Virus record (IMG/VR): IMGVR_UViG_3300035182_000456 | Span: 1-39,999 of that record | Reading direction: 5' to 3' (one strand) | Source: a virus | Lineage: Duplodnaviria > Caudoviricetes | Length of the DNA: 39,999 nt | Part shown: in pieces, positions 1 to 31,935 of the stretch | Layout: each line of letters starts with the position of its first letter | Numbering within the stretch: position 1 is the first letter of the stretch | Notes under the pieces: model-generated | Seen by the model: only the letters and a program-made list of their open reading frames with translations | Told to the model about the DNA's origin: nothing | Database searches by the model: none | Position numbers and translations under genes: made by a program

Positions 1-568
1 AAGTTTCCGTTCCCGATCTAATGCCGCCGTGGGTGTGGGTGTTAACGTTTTTGCCGCCCACTATCAGTGTATTGGGGATAGTTACCGTAGGCGCTACTAT
101 CTCAATACCACTGGCGCTAAACCGGATATACTGAGTTGGGGCGCTTGAGAGTATAGCCCCCAAGTATACCGCATCACTCATATCGTGCTTGCGCAAGCTA
201 CCGGGCTGCGCCGAATCTTTGGATGCCTTGACCGCCGATATGTCCCGATCACAAAACAGGGCAATGCCAATATCACCCACCACCGGGTCAATGATGATCG
301 CATTGCCACCGCCTTGCAGCCGCAGGTATGGCACGTCGTAAATAGTGCCATGCGGGATAAGCTGCCCGTCACCGTCAAGCTGACCCACTAACGGCATGAT
401 GTCCACGCGCCCAATTGCCGCCGCGTCGCCTGCGTTTGTTACCTTGGTTACTTTGACGGGCATGGATGTTCGCACATCGCCCAACAGTGACCGAATGATG
501 AATTGCGCCTCATTCTGTGGGCTGGTCAAGTCCGAGGGTGTGAGGTTGGTGTTAAGCTCTTGGGGCAT
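1..568 (-). CDS. Baseplate spike/puncturing protein (Gp138-like N-terminus), truncated by the window edge
   Basis: Not in the ORF track. I read it from ATG at 568: MPQELNTNLTPSDLTSPQNEAQFIIRSLLGDVRTSMPVKVTKV...VDIMPLVGQLDG. It follows the baseplate hub gene. Confidence 0.75.
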   Translation of the reverse strand, partial: MPQELNTNLTPSDLTSPQNEAQFIIRSLLGDVRTSMPVKVTKVTNAGDAAAIGRVDIMPLVGQLDGDGQLIPHGTIYDVPYLRLQGGGNAIIIDPVVGDIGIALFCDRDISAVKASKDSAQPGSLRKHDMSDAVYLGAILSSAPTQYIRFSASGIEIVAPTVTIPNTLIVGGKNVNTHTHGGIRSGTET

Positions 569-11239: not shown

Positions 11240-11914
11240 TCAGGCTATCAGCTTTATGACCCTTAATCTATCAGCATAGGCTTTCAGTTTTGCCTTGCGC
11301 TCTTCGTATTCCATATCTGCGCGGATGTATGCGGCATCCTTCATCCTTACTTTGCGCAACATTTCCACCTCTTCATTGCTCAGGCTTGATTCATCCAACG
11401 GCTTAAATTCACCTCGCACACACCAATTCAGCAGCTTGTTCTCGGTGGCGTAGTGGAATGACTTGGTATCCTTACCAGCTTCTGCGCGAATCTCTTTTAA
11501 AGCATCGGTCATATCCCACATTGATGCACGCTTGTCTTGCAGCATTCCGGTGCGGGGCGGGTCTTTGAAGTTTTCAGCAATGTAGTCAAGGGCTTTGCGG
11601 AACTGCTGGACAAGGTTTAGTTTGAATTCCAAAACCGTAGGAGTGTTGCGGAACAGTGTTACCAAGAATGTTGCTTGGTCTTCGTTTAGGATTGCGTACT
11701 CAGTGCTTTTTGCAAAACCACCTTGAGGCAATGAAGAACCCTTCTGGATTTCAAATCTGAGTGGGGCAAGTTTCTCGAACATAGCTTGGTGCTTGCGAAT
11801 CAGCTTAATGGTGGATTCATGAGATTTGTTATCGCAGCCTTCCGCAACAATCAGTGAGGTAGTAAATGCTTGCTGCCCGTTAGTCTGGACAAGTTGAATA
11901 GATTGCGTAGTCAT
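11240..11914 (-). CDS. Rha-family regulatory protein (moron in head module)
   Basis: TTSLIVAE..HES..KLI..LRFEI..LNEDQATFLVT..RNT..FKLNLV..F. Has its own promoter TTGTGC-17-TAATAT near 11950-11977. Confidence 0.8.
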   Translation of the reverse strand: MTTQSIQLVQTNGQQAFTTSLIVAEGCDNKSHESTIKLIRKHQAMFEKLAPLRFEIQKGSSLPQGGFAKSTEYAILNEDQATFLVTLFRNTPTVLEFKLNLVQQFRKALDYIAENFKDPPRTGMLQDKRASMWDMTDALKEIRAEAGKDTKSFHYATENKLLNWCVRGEFKPLDESSLSNEEVEMLRKVRMKDAAYIRADMEYEERKAKLKAYADRLRVIKLIA

Positions 11915-17382: not shown

Positions 17383-17451
17383 AAAAATCCCCATTTGTTA
17401 GATGGGGATAGTATTGATTGCTTTGGGGTTTTTATCAAGTGGGATTCGCCA

Positions 17452-18503
17452 TTACCTTGATTTAATGCTTGACTAACCAGCAAGCATCAGTATCGGGCTT
17501 TTACCAACCACAGCGGCATAAGCATTCACCCGCTCTTTAGCCAACTTGTAAGCATCTTTGTAATGCATGTTGGTTTCAACCGCTTCAGCATATACCCGTT
17601 CAACAATCTGATCAGCGACGCAAACCTGCATTAACTGCCCAGTGTTTAGCACGTCACGAATGTTCGGGTAATTATGTTCAAGAACAAACAGTGCTTTGTT
17701 TTCCATTGATGTTAGAGTTGAGTATAAATGGCTAATACCATCGCTTGCGCCTTGTGCTTTTGCCATTTCAATAAATTGCTTAATCACGTCGGTTTCTTTC
17801 TTGCGGTATTCCTTACCATCGCTACGAACTTTTGCATACTGACCAAGCTCTTGCAGTTGTTCGCGCATACGAAAGAATTCTCGCTTAATGCGCAACTTGA
17901 ACTCTTTAGCCTCTGGTGTGTTCTTTGCCAACATAACCAAAGTTACGAACTGCTGTTCATTCAGCAAATAAGATTCATCAGGTCTACCGCCTTTTGCGCC
18001 TTTAGGTTTCTGCACCTGTAGATGCAGAAACCCATCTTCCTCAAATGAATGAAGGTTTTCGGCAATAACACGTTTTAAGGTTCTATGCTCCGTGTAACCG
18101 AACTTTTCCCACAAATCAAACGTGCTGACTCGCGCACCTGTTTTCTTTGTGTTTTTGACGATCATATCCATTTCAATATCCTGTGTTGTTGGTTGAGGTT
18201 ACATTATGCCTTATGTATTTGTGATTTTCAACAATAACGCAGTTTCTGCATCTGTAGGTGCAGAAACCTATCTTTGAACTCCCTTGATTTAGTGCATGAC
18301 TTTCCATGAAATTAGGTTTTGCGTTTTCAAATCGCAGAACCCGCTTTTCCATTGCAGGGATTTAGTGCTTGACTTTCTCCCCATGTAGAACCCACTTTTG
18401 AACTCTGCTGATTTATTGCTTGACTTCCCATTCTGCTGATTTAATGCTTGACTTTCTACTCATGCAGAACCTAATTTTATGTTACCTTGATTTAATGCTT
18501 GAC
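17452..18503. repeat. Array of 15-bp repeats (consensus GATTTARTGCTTGAC, 6 copies); outer copies form a 22-bp direct repeat flanking the Rha gene
   Basis: Copies at 17459, 18286, 18359, 18410, 18438 and 18489. TTACCTTGATTTAATGCTTGAC is identical at 17452-17473 and 18482-18503. Confidence 0.9.
17473..18171 (-). CDS. Rha-like regulatory protein
   Basis: ST..L..FG..H..LK..I, KGGRP and LLNEQQFVTLVMLAKNT motifs. Own promoter TTGAAA-17-CATAAT near 18203-18231. Confidence 0.75.
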   Translation of the reverse strand: MDMIVKNTKKTGARVSTFDLWEKFGYTEHRTLKRVIAENLHSFEEDGFLHLQVQKPKGAKGGRPDESYLLNEQQFVTLVMLAKNTPEAKEFKLRIKREFFRMREQLQELGQYAKVRSDGKEYRKKETDVIKQFIEMAKAQGASDGISHLYSTLTSMENKALFVLEHNYPNIRDVLNTGQLMQVCVADQIVERVYAEAVETNMHYKDAYKLAKERVNAYAAVVGKSPILMLAG

Positions 18504-18517
18504 AATCACCACACACA

Positions 18518-18542
18518 AAAAAGCCCCAATCAAGGGGCTTTC
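18518..18542 (-). terminator. Intrinsic terminator
   Basis: AAAGCCCC-aatcaa-GGGGCTTT with an A-run on the + strand. Confidence 0.75.
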
Positions 18543-19531: not shown

Positions 19532-19870
19532 TTATTCGGCATCCTTGAAATCGGCAAGCTGTCTGTATTTGCTAGCAGGCTTTCCCGTCGCCGCTGCCAC
19601 ATCTGCCAACGTGTGACCAAGCATCAGCATGTTAAGCGCGGTGATTTTATCGGCTTTGGTTAGTTTGTTCGCTTCGCGGTATGCCTTATGCTTCTCCTTA
19701 TTCGCTTCGCGGTACGCCTTCTCCTTCTCCTTATTCGCTTCGCGGTATGCTTCGTTGTATGCCTTATGCTTCTCCTTATTCGCTTCGCGGCACGCCTTCA
19801 GCCGCTCTTTGTTCGCTTCTTGGTACGCCTTATTATGCGCCTTCAGCTTCTCTGGGTCTTTATACGCCAT
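19532..19870 (-). CDS. Charged repeat protein (AYREANKEK repeats) with possible C-terminal HTH
   Basis: AGGAG SD before MAYKDPEK; tandem peptide repeats; TLADVAAATG. Confidence 0.7.
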   Translation of the reverse strand: MAYKDPEKLKAHNKAYQEANKERLKACREANKEKHKAYNEAYREANKEKEKAYREANKEKHKAYREANKLTKADKITALNMLMLGHTLADVAAATGKPASKYRQLADFKDAE

Positions 19871-22209: not shown

Positions 22210-22451
22210 TATGCTTGTCTCCGTTTTGTGGGTAATGTTGTGGGTAATGAAGAAGGGAAGCCATACTTTTTTACAGTCTCCCAATAATACAATGCGTGAC
22301 TCTCTGAAATGCGCCGCAAACGCTCTAAGCGCTCTAAATCGGCTTGCGCGTCAATCAACTTTTGCTCGTACTCTAAAACCTGCTGCTTTATGTCCACGTC
22401 AAACCCCCGTGATCTTGCGCAAAATGGCTTGCGCGTTGCTGGTTGCTGCAT
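22209..22451 (-). CDS. Small coiled-coil hypothetical protein
   Basis: Fills the gap between exo and ssb; true start likely the GTG near 22397. Confidence 0.5.
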   Translation of the reverse strand: MQQPATRKPFCARSRGFDVDIKQQVLEYEQKLIDAQADLERLERLRRISESHALYYWETVKKYGFPSSLPTTLPTKRRQA

Positions 22452-23007
22452 CCAGTGCAGCTATGTATTGCTCATTGCGCGTGTGGCGCTCAATGAACAG
22501 TTGATGCTCTGCCGGATATAGTGGGCAGTAGCTGATAAAATCGCACCACTGCCGACCAGACACAAACAAAAATCCTTGGATTTGAGCCGAGTGCTTTGCT
22601 GGTGTTTTGCCCTCTATAATTGTTTGCATATGCGTCCACGGTTCTGGACTTTTTATCTCAATTCCTCCGTCTGCACCGATCAAACCGTCTGGACTGCAAC
22701 CCGGCGAAAAAGGTTCGTCGCGTTCAATGATGAAACCGCACTCATTGACTGTTTCGCCCGTCATGAGTTCGTATAGTTCACGCGCCGCTGGTTCGCGTTC
22801 CGTTCCGTTGCGCATTGCATCAGTTTCAAAAAACGGCTTTTTGTTGCCGTAGTAAGCCGCTGCAAGCTCTGCAATGTAAGCCGTTGCGCTTGCTGATGGT
22901 TTTCCAGCAGGCGTAACCAAATCACTAAACCGTGATGCTGTAGGTCTTCCACGTAGGGCAAACCATTCCTCGGAATGTTGCTGTAAATCAGGGTAATAGA
23001 TAGCCAT
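22399..23007 (-). CDS. YqaJ/lambda-exonuclease family protein
   Basis: QHSEEWF..R..TAS, GCSPDG, IEIK and QIQG..WCDF motifs. Confidence 0.92.
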   Translation of the reverse strand: MAIYYPDLQQHSEEWFALRGRPTASRFSDLVTPAGKPSASATAYIAELAAAYYGNKKPFFETDAMRNGTEREPAARELYELMTGETVNECGFIIERDEPFSPGCSPDGLIGADGGIEIKSPEPWTHMQTIIEGKTPAKHSAQIQGFLFVSGRQWCDFISYCPLYPAEHQLFIERHTRNEQYIAALDAATSNAQAILRKITGV

Positions 23008-23660
23008 CACTCACCACCCAAAGTGTGAGTGATTTCTTCTTTGGCTTTGGCTGCTGCTGCTGCTTTGGTTGCTGTCGCCTTTTTTGCCGTTGCCATCACG
23101 TCGGCAAAGGCTTTTAGTGGGATTTCTTCGATACAGCCAACCTTAAGGCTACGTGCCAACCATGCGACAAATTTGCTTTCGTCGCTGCCGCCGTTTGCTA
23201 GCTCGGCGCGTAAGCTGTCTGCCTGACCTTGGGTGATTGTTTCGGCTTTTTGCGGCTCTGGTGCAACTGTTCCTGCGTCGTACAAGTCGCCGCCTTTGTG
23301 CCACAAATCCAACGCCACACCAAAGCGCATTGCTGCGTTGCGCAACGCATCGCCAATGGCTTCCTTGATCGCGTTCCCACCCTTTTTATCTTGAGCATCG
23401 CCATACCCGTAGCGGGTAACGCCCCCAATAGTCAAAGCAATCCACATCTCCACGCCAGACCCGACCATCGGCAAGCCCAATGCTTGAGGGTTAGCAACTG
23501 GATTCCAAGTCCAGTTAGGGTCTGCCTGCAACAGGCGGTCAGTCAATGCAGCGTGACCAACGTATGACAAACCCGCTTTAGAGCCTGCGTTTCTTGGAAA
23601 AGTGCTAATCTGGTGCGGTTCAAATGTTTTGCGTAAAGCCGCTTGCATTTCTGGTGTCAT
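23007..23660 (-). CDS. Rad52/Sak-like single-strand annealing protein
   Basis: LSYV..DRL...W and KEAIGDALRNAAMRFGVALDLW; in an SSAP-exo-ssb operon. Confidence 0.8.
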   Translation of the reverse strand: MTPEMQAALRKTFEPHQISTFPRNAGSKAGLSYVGHAALTDRLLQADPNWTWNPVANPQALGLPMVGSGVEMWIALTIGGVTRYGYGDAQDKKGGNAIKEAIGDALRNAAMRFGVALDLWHKGGDLYDAGTVAPEPQKAETITQGQADSLRAELANGGSDESKFVAWLARSLKVGCIEEIPLKAFADVMATAKKATATKAAAAAKAKEEITHTLGGE

Positions 23661-24565: not shown

Positions 24566-24624
24566 GGTAGTGTCTCCGTGTTGTGGGGTTAATGCCTGAT
24601 GAAAGGCACTGACCCATGATGTTG

Positions 24625-25362
24625 TTAAACCTTGTCGATAAGCTCTTTCAGATGCTCCCAGTCACGAACAACGCCAAACTGAACCATGCTTGTTAGCATC
24701 TTTTCCGCATCTGCACGGGCTGATAACTGATGCGCGTCTGCTTCGTTCCAGCGATTCACGCCTTTTTCCTTTGTAGGCAAACCAAGGCGTGATGCCAGCG
24801 CATTGGCAGCATGGACATACAGCCACTTGTTATCTTTCCCCACGCGGTCGGGCAACTGGTCAATAGCCATGTTGAACGGTTTGTAGCGGTCGCCTGATTC
24901 GTCACGGTTTTGCAAAAGTTTTCCTTCAACGAAGGTCTTATACACCTGATACTTAAAATCAGGGTTTAGGAATGTTGCAGCATCCAGCAGGATATACAGA
25001 TGCGCCCATGTACCGCCACCCTTGCCGCGCTTGGTTACGAACAATGAAGATGTTTTGGATAGGGATTCAGTCAAACGACCGTCATTTATAATACGCCGAT
25101 TCGGCGTATTTAAAATTTGATCACTTTCTTCATTTTTATAATCTGTGGATTCCACAGATTTAAACTCACGCTCTAACACAGCCACATATTCAGCTAATTC
25201 TGGTGAGCGCATCCAATGGTCAAGGTGTTTCGCTGGAAGCCCCTTCTCAATCCGGTATGCGTTGCCGCAATCCCAGAACTGGTTAAGGTTGCCCATCATG
25301 GTTTTGTGGTCGATGTTGAATACATTGTGACCGATGGTTACGGTCATACGTTGGTTTTGCAT
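24625..25362 (-). CDS. KilA-N domain protein
   Basis: NLN..W..GN..R and TKRGKGGGTWAHLYILLDAA..LNPDFK motifs. Own promoter TTGCAA-17-TATAAT at 25398-25426. Confidence 0.85.
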   Translation of the reverse strand: MQNQRMTVTIGHNVFNIDHKTMMGNLNQFWDCGNAYRIEKGLPAKHLDHWMRSPELAEYVAVLEREFKSVESTDYKNEESDQILNTPNRRIINDGRLTESLSKTSSLFVTKRGKGGGTWAHLYILLDAATFLNPDFKYQVYKTFVEGKLLQNRDESGDRYKPFNMAIDQLPDRVGKDNKWLYVHAANALASRLGLPTKEKGVNRWNEADAHQLSARADAEKMLTSMVQFGVVRDWEHLKELIDKV

Positions 25363-26751: not shown

Positions 26752-26884
26752 CAAAAAACCCGCCGTAGCGGGTAATTTATGAGCTAACATCCATTTCAAA
26801 TGTAGGTATTCTCTAAGCTGCCTATCCGGCAGTTAATTTTGATTTAGCCCGGATTTGAAATCCGTGCTGTTTCCAAGCTGCCTT

Positions 26885-29880: not shown

Positions 29881-30555
29881 CTACCGTCCTAACAATGGCA
29901 CTTGCTTCACCTTGCTTTTTAACTCTGGCAACTTGTGCAGCAAATACGTCTTGTCACCTCGCTTCAAGGCTTCACAAACTGACGGTGCGCTAAACATGCC
30001 AGACAAACGAAAAAGAGACATTCTGAATTCATCATCTGACCATATATAGCCCCAGCCTGTTGAGAACTTATTTGAGTACCAGACTCTGAATGAAAGCCGC
30101 AACTGAGAAAGCGATGGCTTATTGTCGGTCATACGGAAATAAGGACTCTCATCATACAGATAACCACGATCAACAAGCTCTTCCCACCAATCAACAATAC
30201 CCGGCAACAAACCAAGATTGATTAGCTTAGCCGCGTAATGGTCGTTACCGATCACGGCTTGTTTGGTTTCGAGTTCTTGCCAGCGGTCAATAATGCGCAT
30301 CAGCAAGGCGACGTTAAGGTGTGCTGCAACTGAAATGGATTGGCGTTTGTCGAGTTGGTAGGTTTTGATGTACTCAGTTTTTCCTTTACCTGAAATTATT
30401 GGGCACTCAATTTTTGTAACCAAACCGAACGCAGGGTCTTTCGCCAATGACTCCACAGTACGCATTGCATTGTTGTGCCGAACATCCAACATATCGGTGA
30501 TTTCTTTCAGTGTCATGCTGGTTACTGTTGCAGACATTGTTGCTAAGTCGTTCAT
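29881..30555 (-). CDS. Rha-like (antirepressor-type) DNA-binding protein
   Basis: MTLKEITDML..RHNNAMRTVE, Y.LDKRQS and IIDRWQELE motifs. Start uncertain (30555 or 30564). Confidence 0.75.
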   Translation of the reverse strand: MNDLATMSATVTSMTLKEITDMLDVRHNNAMRTVESLAKDPAFGLVTKIECPIISGKGKTEYIKTYQLDKRQSISVAAHLNVALLMRIIDRWQELETKQAVIGNDHYAAKLINLGLLPGIVDWWEELVDRGYLYDESPYFRMTDNKPSLSQLRLSFRVWYSNKFSTGWGYIWSDDEFRMSLFRLSGMFSAPSVCEALKRGDKTYLLHKLPELKSKVKQVPLLGR

Positions 30556-30675: not shown

Positions 30676-30867
30676 TGAGGATTATAGCCTGTGATGTGGA
30701 AAAACGCCAGACAAACGCACTGAACTCACACAATCGCCCACAAGCCTCGCAACACCATACCCGCCACTACCGTACCGCTAACAACGCGCGAACGCCGCAT
30801 AGACAACCACAGTGAGTATATGGAGGAGTTTAACCATGTTGGGGTGTGTGTTGGGTTGGTATGGCTT

Positions 30868-31160
30868 AAAGTAGTAGGATGGTAGTAAGTAGTAGTAGGA
30901 TGGTAGTAAGATGATGTTACTACCTTTTTCTTTATTAAAATCATATAGTTAAGCACTGGTAGTAAGAGTAGTAAGATATATTTTTAAAATAAGTATGTGA
31001 GATTAAGTATATATCTACACACACACACACAATTGCATATATATATATAAGGATGCGATCTTACTACTCTTACTACCGCCGCCAAGAAGCATACTATTTT
31101 GTCTTTGGTTTCAGCATGTTACAGGCTAATTTCTCGGTAGTAGGATGTTACTACCTTTTT
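30868..31160. other. Probable replication origin
   Basis: Many GGTAGTA(A/G)G iteron-like units; perfect 20-bp inverted repeat at 30958-30977 and 31058-31077 around an AT-rich (CA)n/(TA)n core; non-coding; near the helicase. Confidence 0.7.
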
Positions 31161-31230
31161 GGTTGATTCATCCCCAAAACGCAAAAAGCCACCGGGTTAG
31201 GGTGGCTCTTGCATGGTTTGAGTGGCTTTT

Positions 31231-31935
31231 TCAGTGAATCGGGATTGGCATCATGTAAGCCCTGACTGCTGAACCGTTAATTTTAACGCTCTTTGACGTG
31301 TACCCGCATTTCTTCAGGGCAATTCCAACGGCTCGAACTACTTTTGCGTCTGGTTTGTCGTATCCAAGTTTAACAGCTACCTGAGTAGTAGCCATAGGGT
31401 TTTTCAACAAAAACAACTGGTTATCATAGTTACTACGAAAACCGAACATAGCTAAGACCTGCTTTTCATGGTCAGTTTGCAATCTAAATTCCGGCTCATA
31501 CTGACCAAATGCCGATTCAAGTTGACGCAAAATAGCGGTTTCTTTTTCAATGTTCCTGCGCAATCCTTCAATAGCCAGTGAAGCGTGCTGATTAGGCGTA
31601 AGTCGTTGATCTTCTTTGGAGTAATTGCCTGTTTTGCGTATTGCTGGAAGAACTTCACCAGTAACCCACTTGCGAAACCGCTTTGCTTCAGGCTTGTCTG
31701 ATCTGATGATTACGGCATACAAGCCAGATTCGTTGATAATAGTGGATTCTCCTTGACGACCTAAGTTCAGCTTAGCCCGTTCATCTTCATCAAGGCGGCT
31801 TGCTACCATTGATGGGTTGCTCAATTCCAAAACATCGCACACATCAGCAAGTACAAACCATGGGTTTCCTGCTTCGTCTGTGATCGTGCGCAATTGGTTA
31901 GTGTTTCCGAAGTTGAATGTTGTCAATGCGTTCAT
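31231..31935 (-). CDS. Bro-N domain protein fused to a copy of the helicase C-terminal domain
   Basis: PWFVLADVC, INESGLY and AKRFRKWVTGEVLPAIRKTG motifs; the last ~55 aa match ORF 32193. Confidence 0.9.
   Translation of the reverse strand: MNALTTFNFGNTNQLRTITDEAGNPWFVLADVCDVLELSNPSMVASRLDEDERAKLNLGRQGESTIINESGLYAVIIRSDKPEAKRFRKWVTGEVLPAIRKTGNYSKEDQRLTPNQHASLAIEGLRRNIEKETAILRQLESAFGQYEPEFRLQTDHEKQVLAMFGFRSNYDNQLFLLKNPMATTQVAVKLGYDKPDAKVVRAVGIALKKCGYTSKSVKINGSAVRAYMMPIPIH

Follow-up and report, generated by a model that had tools for sequence, protein, structure and literature searches.

Why should a phage carry, directly upstream of a rha gene, an array of short repeats in which hairpins resembling a segment of that same gene are embedded? 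An earlier note on this locus had offered two answers: a store of cassettes that diversifies the Rha loop by gene conversion, or an array of operators or small RNAs matching the coding hairpin. We analysed the array within the whole available stretch of phage DNA, 39,999 bases long and hereafter called the window, the sequence of which is contained in sediment and microbial-mat metagenomes, with no RNA dataset among those listed as containing it. The window codes for three Rha-like proteins, one KilA-N protein and one Bro-N protein, together with a single-strand annealing protein (23007-23660) and a YqaJ exonuclease (22399-23010). The array and rha sit between a terminator-like hairpin and a lysozyme gene (Table 1). 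The hairpin, recognised by eye and absent from the computed scan listing, likely closes the upstream operon as its terminator and forms the left border of a variable slot, the contents of which across relatives are Rha, KilA-N or nothing. Elsewhere in the window, an ORF at 19532-19870 contains a repeated YREANKEK-type motif whose copy number varies in the relatives L208 and L209 and which the sister phage G001 lacks at this place.

The rha product scored above the curated cut-off of the Pfam Rha family (32.6 against 29.9 bits) and its C-terminal domain is of the phrog_2657 type. In the structure model, residues 29-38 form a helix and residues 50-54 and 65-70 form strands, the former lying in a hairpin. 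Fold matches of the Rha-domain model, including those to winged-helix proteins, were weak (Z 5.0 or less), as was the top Foldseek match of the rha model, the Deinococcus nick sensor DdrC (E 2.6e-3, TM 0.39, rmsd 10), and no solved homolog was found. Sigma-70-like matches occurred in the region at chance frequency (3 against 2.7 by chance); the predicted rha promoter accompanies the gene into a different slot in G001.

Table 1. Coordinates of the array, the rha gene and their bordering elements in the window
Feature	Position	Strand	Description
Terminator-like hairpin	18517..18541	-	G+C hairpin with T-run; by eye; kept in sister phages
Unit 1	18471..18503	-	KilA-N type QALNQG-NIKL; 10/11 residues of a homolog, linker 6/6; also in L188
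'Empty' site 1	18453..18470	-	VLHE, as in the VLHEENAKP allele; match at the amino-acid level only
Unit 2	18425..18452	-	KilA-N type SQALNQQ-NGK, 28 nt; 9/11, linker 5/6
Unit 3	18392..18424	-	KilA-N type SQAINQQ-SSKV; 9/11, linker 4/6
'Empty' site 2	18374..18391	-	VLHG; presumed
Unit 4	18341..18373	-	KilA-N type SQALNPC-NGK; 8/11, linker 4/6
Cassette 1	18312..18342	-	Palindrome of a foreign Rha allele (VLRFENAKP); 30/31 identical to G001:6505-6535
Unit 5	18268..18300	-	KilA-N type S(H)ALNQG-SSK; 7/11, linker 3/6; weakest unit
Cassette 2	18241..18268	-	Copy of the own-gene palindrome, 25/28; ends 10 nt ahead of the -35 box predicted for rha
Predicted rha promoter	18203..18231	-	Sigma-70 type; 10/12 consensus bases
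rha gene	17473..18171	-	232 aa, N-terminal Rha domain; PF09669, phrog_2657; model pLDDT 72
In-gene palindrome	18005..18032	-	Codons 47-56; likely the protein's own site
Unit 6	17441..17473	-	KilA-N type SQALNQG-NG; 9/11, linker 4/6; overlaps the rha stop codon

As the earlier note had described, a 15-nt motif occurs six times on the minus strand with at most one mismatch (17459, 18286, 18359, 18410, 18438 and 18489), the outer two copies share an exact 22 bp, and a GTT(T)CT site lies exactly 18 nt past the motif in all four of the units named there. The window held no further copy at this threshold; when up to three mismatches were allowed, 13 matches were found against 2.18 expected, a number reached by none of 100 shuffles. 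We also confirmed that cassette 1 encodes VLRFENAKP (9/11 pairs), its reading starting at 18340, one base off the start given before, and that cassette 2 resembles the in-gene palindrome to the extent claimed. Cassette 2 is likewise 25/28 identical to the reverse complement of that palindrome, so it could be an inverted copy with a flipped centre, and the two form 29-nt arms that are 93% complementary. Two features had been overlooked: the 18-nt 'spacers' are non-random, and the 'empty' sites, which are likely truncated Rha sites, start like a third Rha allele. An origin of the outer 22-bp repeat as a target-site duplication was rejected because the slot is empty in L208 and L209 and holds no motif copy there. 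The exact 19-nt pattern had no match in the sequence collection, a tandem-pattern search of the collection returned seven matches, all of them low-complexity coding repeats, a metagenome contig scan with a single protein found nothing, and no array was seen by eye in four cultured phages with related Rha genes.

The motif and the 'spacer' together make up a 33-nt piece that matches the variable segment of a KilA-N gene, and it is this gene that occupies the rha slot in the sister phages G001, L187 and L188. In G001 the variable segment SQVINQQNGS (SQVINQQ-NGS when set beside unit 2) is coded by repeat plus 'spacer'. We obtained 42 segment types from 88 of 91 KilA-N homologs, and the six units matched such types at 7-10 of 11 residues. 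Over the six linker residues past the motif, units 1-6 matched 6, 5, 4, 4, 3 and 4, respectively; in 20000 draws of random DNA, 4 was reached in 105 and 3 in 1513. The six units read as six KilA-N allele types, and the array as a whole matches KilA-N with six units and Rha with two full and two partial ones, while no gene with an array-type KilA-N segment was found in the window. A gap of 2 nt separates the end of unit 6 from the -35 box predicted for the lysozyme gene (promoter match at 17410-17438, such matches being at chance frequency), and the unit is missing at this end in G001, L187, L188, L208 and L209. The unit upstream of the KilA-N gene in G001/L187 and in L188 is of another allele than the gene's own.

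Among close KilA-N relatives, helix and segment appeared by eye to go together, HQPAAWMR occurring with NQQ in 23/23 and HQPDKWFQ with NQG in 10/10. The covariation analysis of KilA-N placed no helix-segment pair in the top 25 of 11185 and did not single out the helix, and the variable segment contains no clear palindrome. Some KilA-N homologs of the P0156-P0196 group have a second segment copy in the next loop; there the second copy tracks the helix type and the first copy varies. A 160-bp insert between terminase and portal in G001 (G001:18265-18426, L050), which the window lacks, contains a KilA-N segment copy and a promoter-like end. The window's own KilA-N gene has two coding palindromes (25084-25116 and 25140-25160), and weaker ones were seen by eye in the Bro-N gene and the third Rha gene (31745-31790 and 30380-30430); no outside copies of the palindromes of these three genes were found.

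The two Rha cassettes are best understood from G001, whose Rha protein is 77% identical to that of the window and has the loop GVLRFENAKP. The window's palindrome is present directly behind the stop codon of the G001 Rha gene (27/28), and a collection search for this palindrome returned G001 only. Cassette 1 being the G001 site, each phage carries the other's in-gene segment outside its gene. The check on relatives proposed in the earlier note had a positive outcome, in that the sequence of cassette 1 is found inside the gene of relatives and the loop is variable. Over their first 300 nt, however, the window and G001 genes share only 32-38 bases per block of 60, as against 60/60 in the next 300 nt, which indicates that the whole front domain was swapped and not the loop. 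A further palindrome in the window (24585-24615) and a copy of the window's Rha site in G001 (G001:7081-7107) occupy the equal place before a 275-aa gene and have the same outer bases.

We then surveyed the in-gene palindrome in 123 Rha loci, 111 of which were aligned through the helix to give 84 distinct helix-loop types. At codons 47-56, at least 9 of 11 bases pair in 43 of the 84 variants, compared with 1.0% of 2604 control windows. Judged from sequence, the in-gene palindrome is a family-wide DNA feature of Rha. In 70 loops of 30 nt, synonymous codons were limited to those preserving the symmetry; V53 was GTG in 9/9 and R53 was AGG in 9/10 cases, for backgrounds of 0.16 and 0.20. G-T was not favoured among the palindrome mismatches (17 G-T against 27 A-C), pointing to a constraint on double-stranded DNA and not to RNA wobble.

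Covariation was evaluated in 168 Rha sequences that remained after coverage filtering and duplicate removal. The residue pairs 31-50 and 31-53 ranked 5 and 11 of 19900; codons 50 and 53 oppose each other in the palindrome, and residue 31 lies in the predicted recognition helix. K, Y or F at position 31 occurred together with R53 in 32 of 34. The partial correlation with the loop was 0.155 for the helix and 0.03 for the stretch in between, which argues against linkage alone, but segments 57-72 and 81-88 correlated with the loop about as strongly as the helix (0.12-0.17). On a tree built without helix and loop, with the residue-31 traits picked after inspection of the table, K/Y/F31 and R53 agreed in 10.7 of 12 independent pairs (p about 0.001), M31 and Q50 in 5.9 of 7, and T/V31 and H50 in 6.7 of 12, none being opposed on average; on an N-domain-only tree there were at most six pairs among the summaries listed and none was significant. 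The symmetric bases of the palindrome and residue 31 in the presumed recognition helix thus appear to vary together; a contact within the protein, between residue 31 and residues 50 and 53, may also be the source of this covariation.

Helix and loop were also inherited together on the short scale. Of 24 close Rha proteins, one of them truncated, the 23 relatives compared fell into four helix-loop types (4, 4, 4 and 11), and none was a mixture of types although breakpoints fall nearby, which speaks against conversion of the loop only.

Of 77 upstream regions and 25 genomes examined, one each contained a close outside copy of a gene's own site, in both cases that of the window, so promoter autoregulation is not the rule in the family. 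With up to 3 mismatches allowed in 20, near-copies of sites from other genes were found upstream in 5 of 74 loci including the window, against 0-2 loci in ten control libraries and 0-1 in six shuffles, and downstream in 1 of 67. At four mismatches the upstream excess was lost (9 loci against 2-9 in controls). Several of the foreign-site near-copies adjoin a -35-like box, whereas units 1-4 of the window are 110-270 nt away from that of rha and the copy behind the G001 Rha gene adjoins no evident promoter.

In L068, three 36-nt tandem units, every one of them including a foreign Rha site, lie some 120-200 nt ahead of rha in the stretch from terminator to promoter. A second small array precedes the CHAP gene of the window (26790-26870, minus strand), with a palindrome at 26846-26868 and another Rha-type core; a 12-nt core of the palindrome recurs in the loop of the Rha gene at 11240. 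In G001, where that Rha gene is represented by another allele, the spots of the CHAP-gene array contain other inserts. Two more loop-type palindromes directly follow a terminator in G001 (L002 100-160), for which no matching gene was seen in G000 or G001. An iteron-rich, origin-like module occurs twice in G001 (L002 170-720 and G001 1386-1960), once inverted inside the slot, and a module in the window (30730-31230) has other iterons.

The array varies among sister phages and within populations as well. In L188 it has collapsed, and what is left of it comprises unit 1, a Rha half site and the beginning of the promoter of rha. In contigs of four studies the G001-type gene is present and units are lost. 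In contigs X2:2 and X3:10, unit 5 has the NPC-SSK allele instead of NQG, and the two central differences of cassette 2 are absent. Contigs of runs X2 and X4 have another symmetric Rha site (VLRFQIA, 9/11 pairs) at the position of cassette 1 in a similarly built array, possibly from another locus. Units were therein exchanged for other whole allele types with the symmetry kept. The window-type genes in contigs of X2-X4 retain the window's loop, although contigs drop rare variants. Left out of the evidence were contig X2:4 (depth 3.4) and a joint of 17473 to 18389 in X3, which might represent either an allele that lacks the gene or a different order of the units.

We propose, at a probability of roughly 0.55, that the array is a bank of Rha and KilA-N segment copies, putative binding sites that would place the rha promoter under the control of the phage's own and its relatives' regulators. 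Each Rha or KilA-N protein would recognise a site contained in its own coding sequence, in a loop tolerating any sequence, so that reader and site could travel as one short module; in Rha, the helix (codons 29-38) and the site (codons 47-56) would make up a module of some 85 bp, exchanged in its entirety. The unit copies were likely made by short-homology recombination, for which the annealing protein and the YqaJ exonuclease of the phage would be available. Copies would be retained before promoters, giving self-control via cassette 2, the likely own operator, and sensitivity to relatives' regulators via the remaining units; for cassette 2, repression of the phage's own promoter is more likely than activation. 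The operator branch of the earlier note is therein upheld at the level of sequence and widened, the array holding putative sites for members of two protein families, most of these members being alleles that the phage's own genes do not encode. Several results weigh against this proposal, namely the restriction of own-site copies to a single upstream region and genome, the near-copy excess that vanishes at four mismatches, the distance of units 1-4 from the -35 box, which is long for simple occlusion, the fact that the slot can be empty, and the KilA-N segment, which is not clearly palindromic and whose helix is not singled out by covariation.

Two other explanations give the copies no role at the promoter. 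The putative binding sites could have another use, as decoys soaking up foreign Rha and KilA-N proteins, or as cis tags by which a genome is spared harm from these proteins or obtains a benefit that they confer on DNA with their site, an explanation that we consider unlikely although it is the strongest of the rivals. It would account for most copies being foreign, for six KilA-N units in a window without such a KilA-N gene, for the upstream units in G001 and L188 that differ from the gene's own allele, and for copies lying downstream of a stop codon or in the interval from the terminase to the portal gene; the block that Rha imposes on phage growth in IHF-deficient hosts (PMC4936722) and a weak structural similarity to the centromere-bound Par domain of pSK1 (Z 4.7, rmsd 2.3, 52 aligned; within the chance range) would also suit it. 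A decoy has no need of a place directly before a -35-like box, where copies often lie, and a single copy per allele would be a weak sponge. The array could otherwise be debris left by genes replacing one another time and again at a hot spot of recombination, and serve no function today, as the changing content of the slot, the collapsed L188 array with its half site and the loss of units in the population might suggest. We regard this as improbable, since the variable segments alone were kept, with no other part of rha and with units stopping after 33 nt, the 18-nt register is fixed in 4/4, replacements are whole allele types of intact symmetry, and the layout recurs in unrelated loci.

The remaining two explanations are close to readings offered in the earlier note. 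A donor store, in which recombination with the upstream hairpins would change the loop of the gene, is about as doubtful as debris: the loop of cassette 1 is indeed in use in relatives, the annealing protein and exonuclease are encoded, and KilA-N genes with a second segment show a first segment varying under a constant helix, but six of the eight full units are KilA-N segments from another protein family and could not be donated to Rha, the alleles differ over the N-terminal 300 nt, helix and loop types are unmixed in the 23 close relatives, and the window-type genes of X2-X4 keep their loop (with the proviso on contigs given above). A conversion store is hence unsupported. Least credible of all is that the coding hairpin pairs with small RNAs or with an mRNA leader; the cassettes are able to fold as hairpins, but G-T is not favoured over A-C, folding is no better than in shuffles (z -1.07), no Rfam family reached threshold, and the array is positioned after the terminator-like hairpin but ahead of the predicted promoter.

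Genes for Rha and KilA-N proteins abound in phages, and for most of them no DNA target is known. Were every such gene to contain its site at one set position, targets would become readable from sequence. Foreign sites banked ahead of a promoter would represent a kind of cross-talk between phages that is undescribed so far, and would explain the rapid swapping of Rha and KilA-N N-terminal domains. More tentatively, and with odds that we put somewhat below even, phages may hold an updatable, RNA-free memory of competitors, in which relatives' in-gene sites are captured at promoters (rha, lysozyme) to sense, blunt or exploit their regulators in co-infection; Rha and KilA-N genes would then form a natural table of a helix-to-DNA recognition code.

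Among known systems, silent-cassette gene conversion of the pilS/pilE and vlsE type likewise places short variant copies beside an expressed gene. The window array differs in that it has no conserved in-frame exchange flanks beyond a few bases, and its would-be donors come from another family, with no loop-only recombinants among the 23 close relatives. A CRISPR-like or guide-RNA array was rejected, as the 'spacers' continue the KilA-N segment and no Rfam family was matched; no associated nuclease or reverse transcriptase was found among the 58 window ORFs scanned. The nearest precedent for a regulator reading a site in its own gene would be Roi of coliphage HK022, which is reported to recognise a stretch of its own coding sequence next to a site for IHF. 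Roi is an antirepressor-like phage DNA-binding protein with a reported in-gene site, as the window's Rha would be, but it involves one gene and one IHF-tied site, whereas the window locus has many alleles, helix-site covariation, an outside bank of putative own and foreign sites, and two families. IHF sites were not above background in the window (7-8 of 9 consensus bases in units and 7 near the loop, 7 being reached by 297 of 1500 random windows, with a consensus that may not be the host's). A brief statement on the role of HK022 Roi, with the citation of Clerget and Boccard (1996, J Bacteriol 178:4077), is given in PMC3430580. Rha of phi80 and ORF201 of P22 belong to the Rha family (PF09669), above whose cut-off the window protein lies, and Rha blocks phage growth in IHF-deficient hosts; the passage on Rha in PMC4936722 names no DNA target, and the window protein differs in its phrog_2657-type C-terminal domain. 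With KilA-N/APSES proteins (PF04383; Mbp1) the locus shares the KilA-N gene matched by the repeats and a weak match of the Rha model to Mbp1 (Z 4.3-4.4). The copying of in-gene Rha or KilA-N segments into arrays was not found described in the literature searched, which lay mostly outside the subscription journals. What the present locus adds to these systems is the reciprocal phage pair, the two-family array, the non-palindromic KilA-N segment that was copied in like manner, and a single residue apparently tied to symmetric bases.
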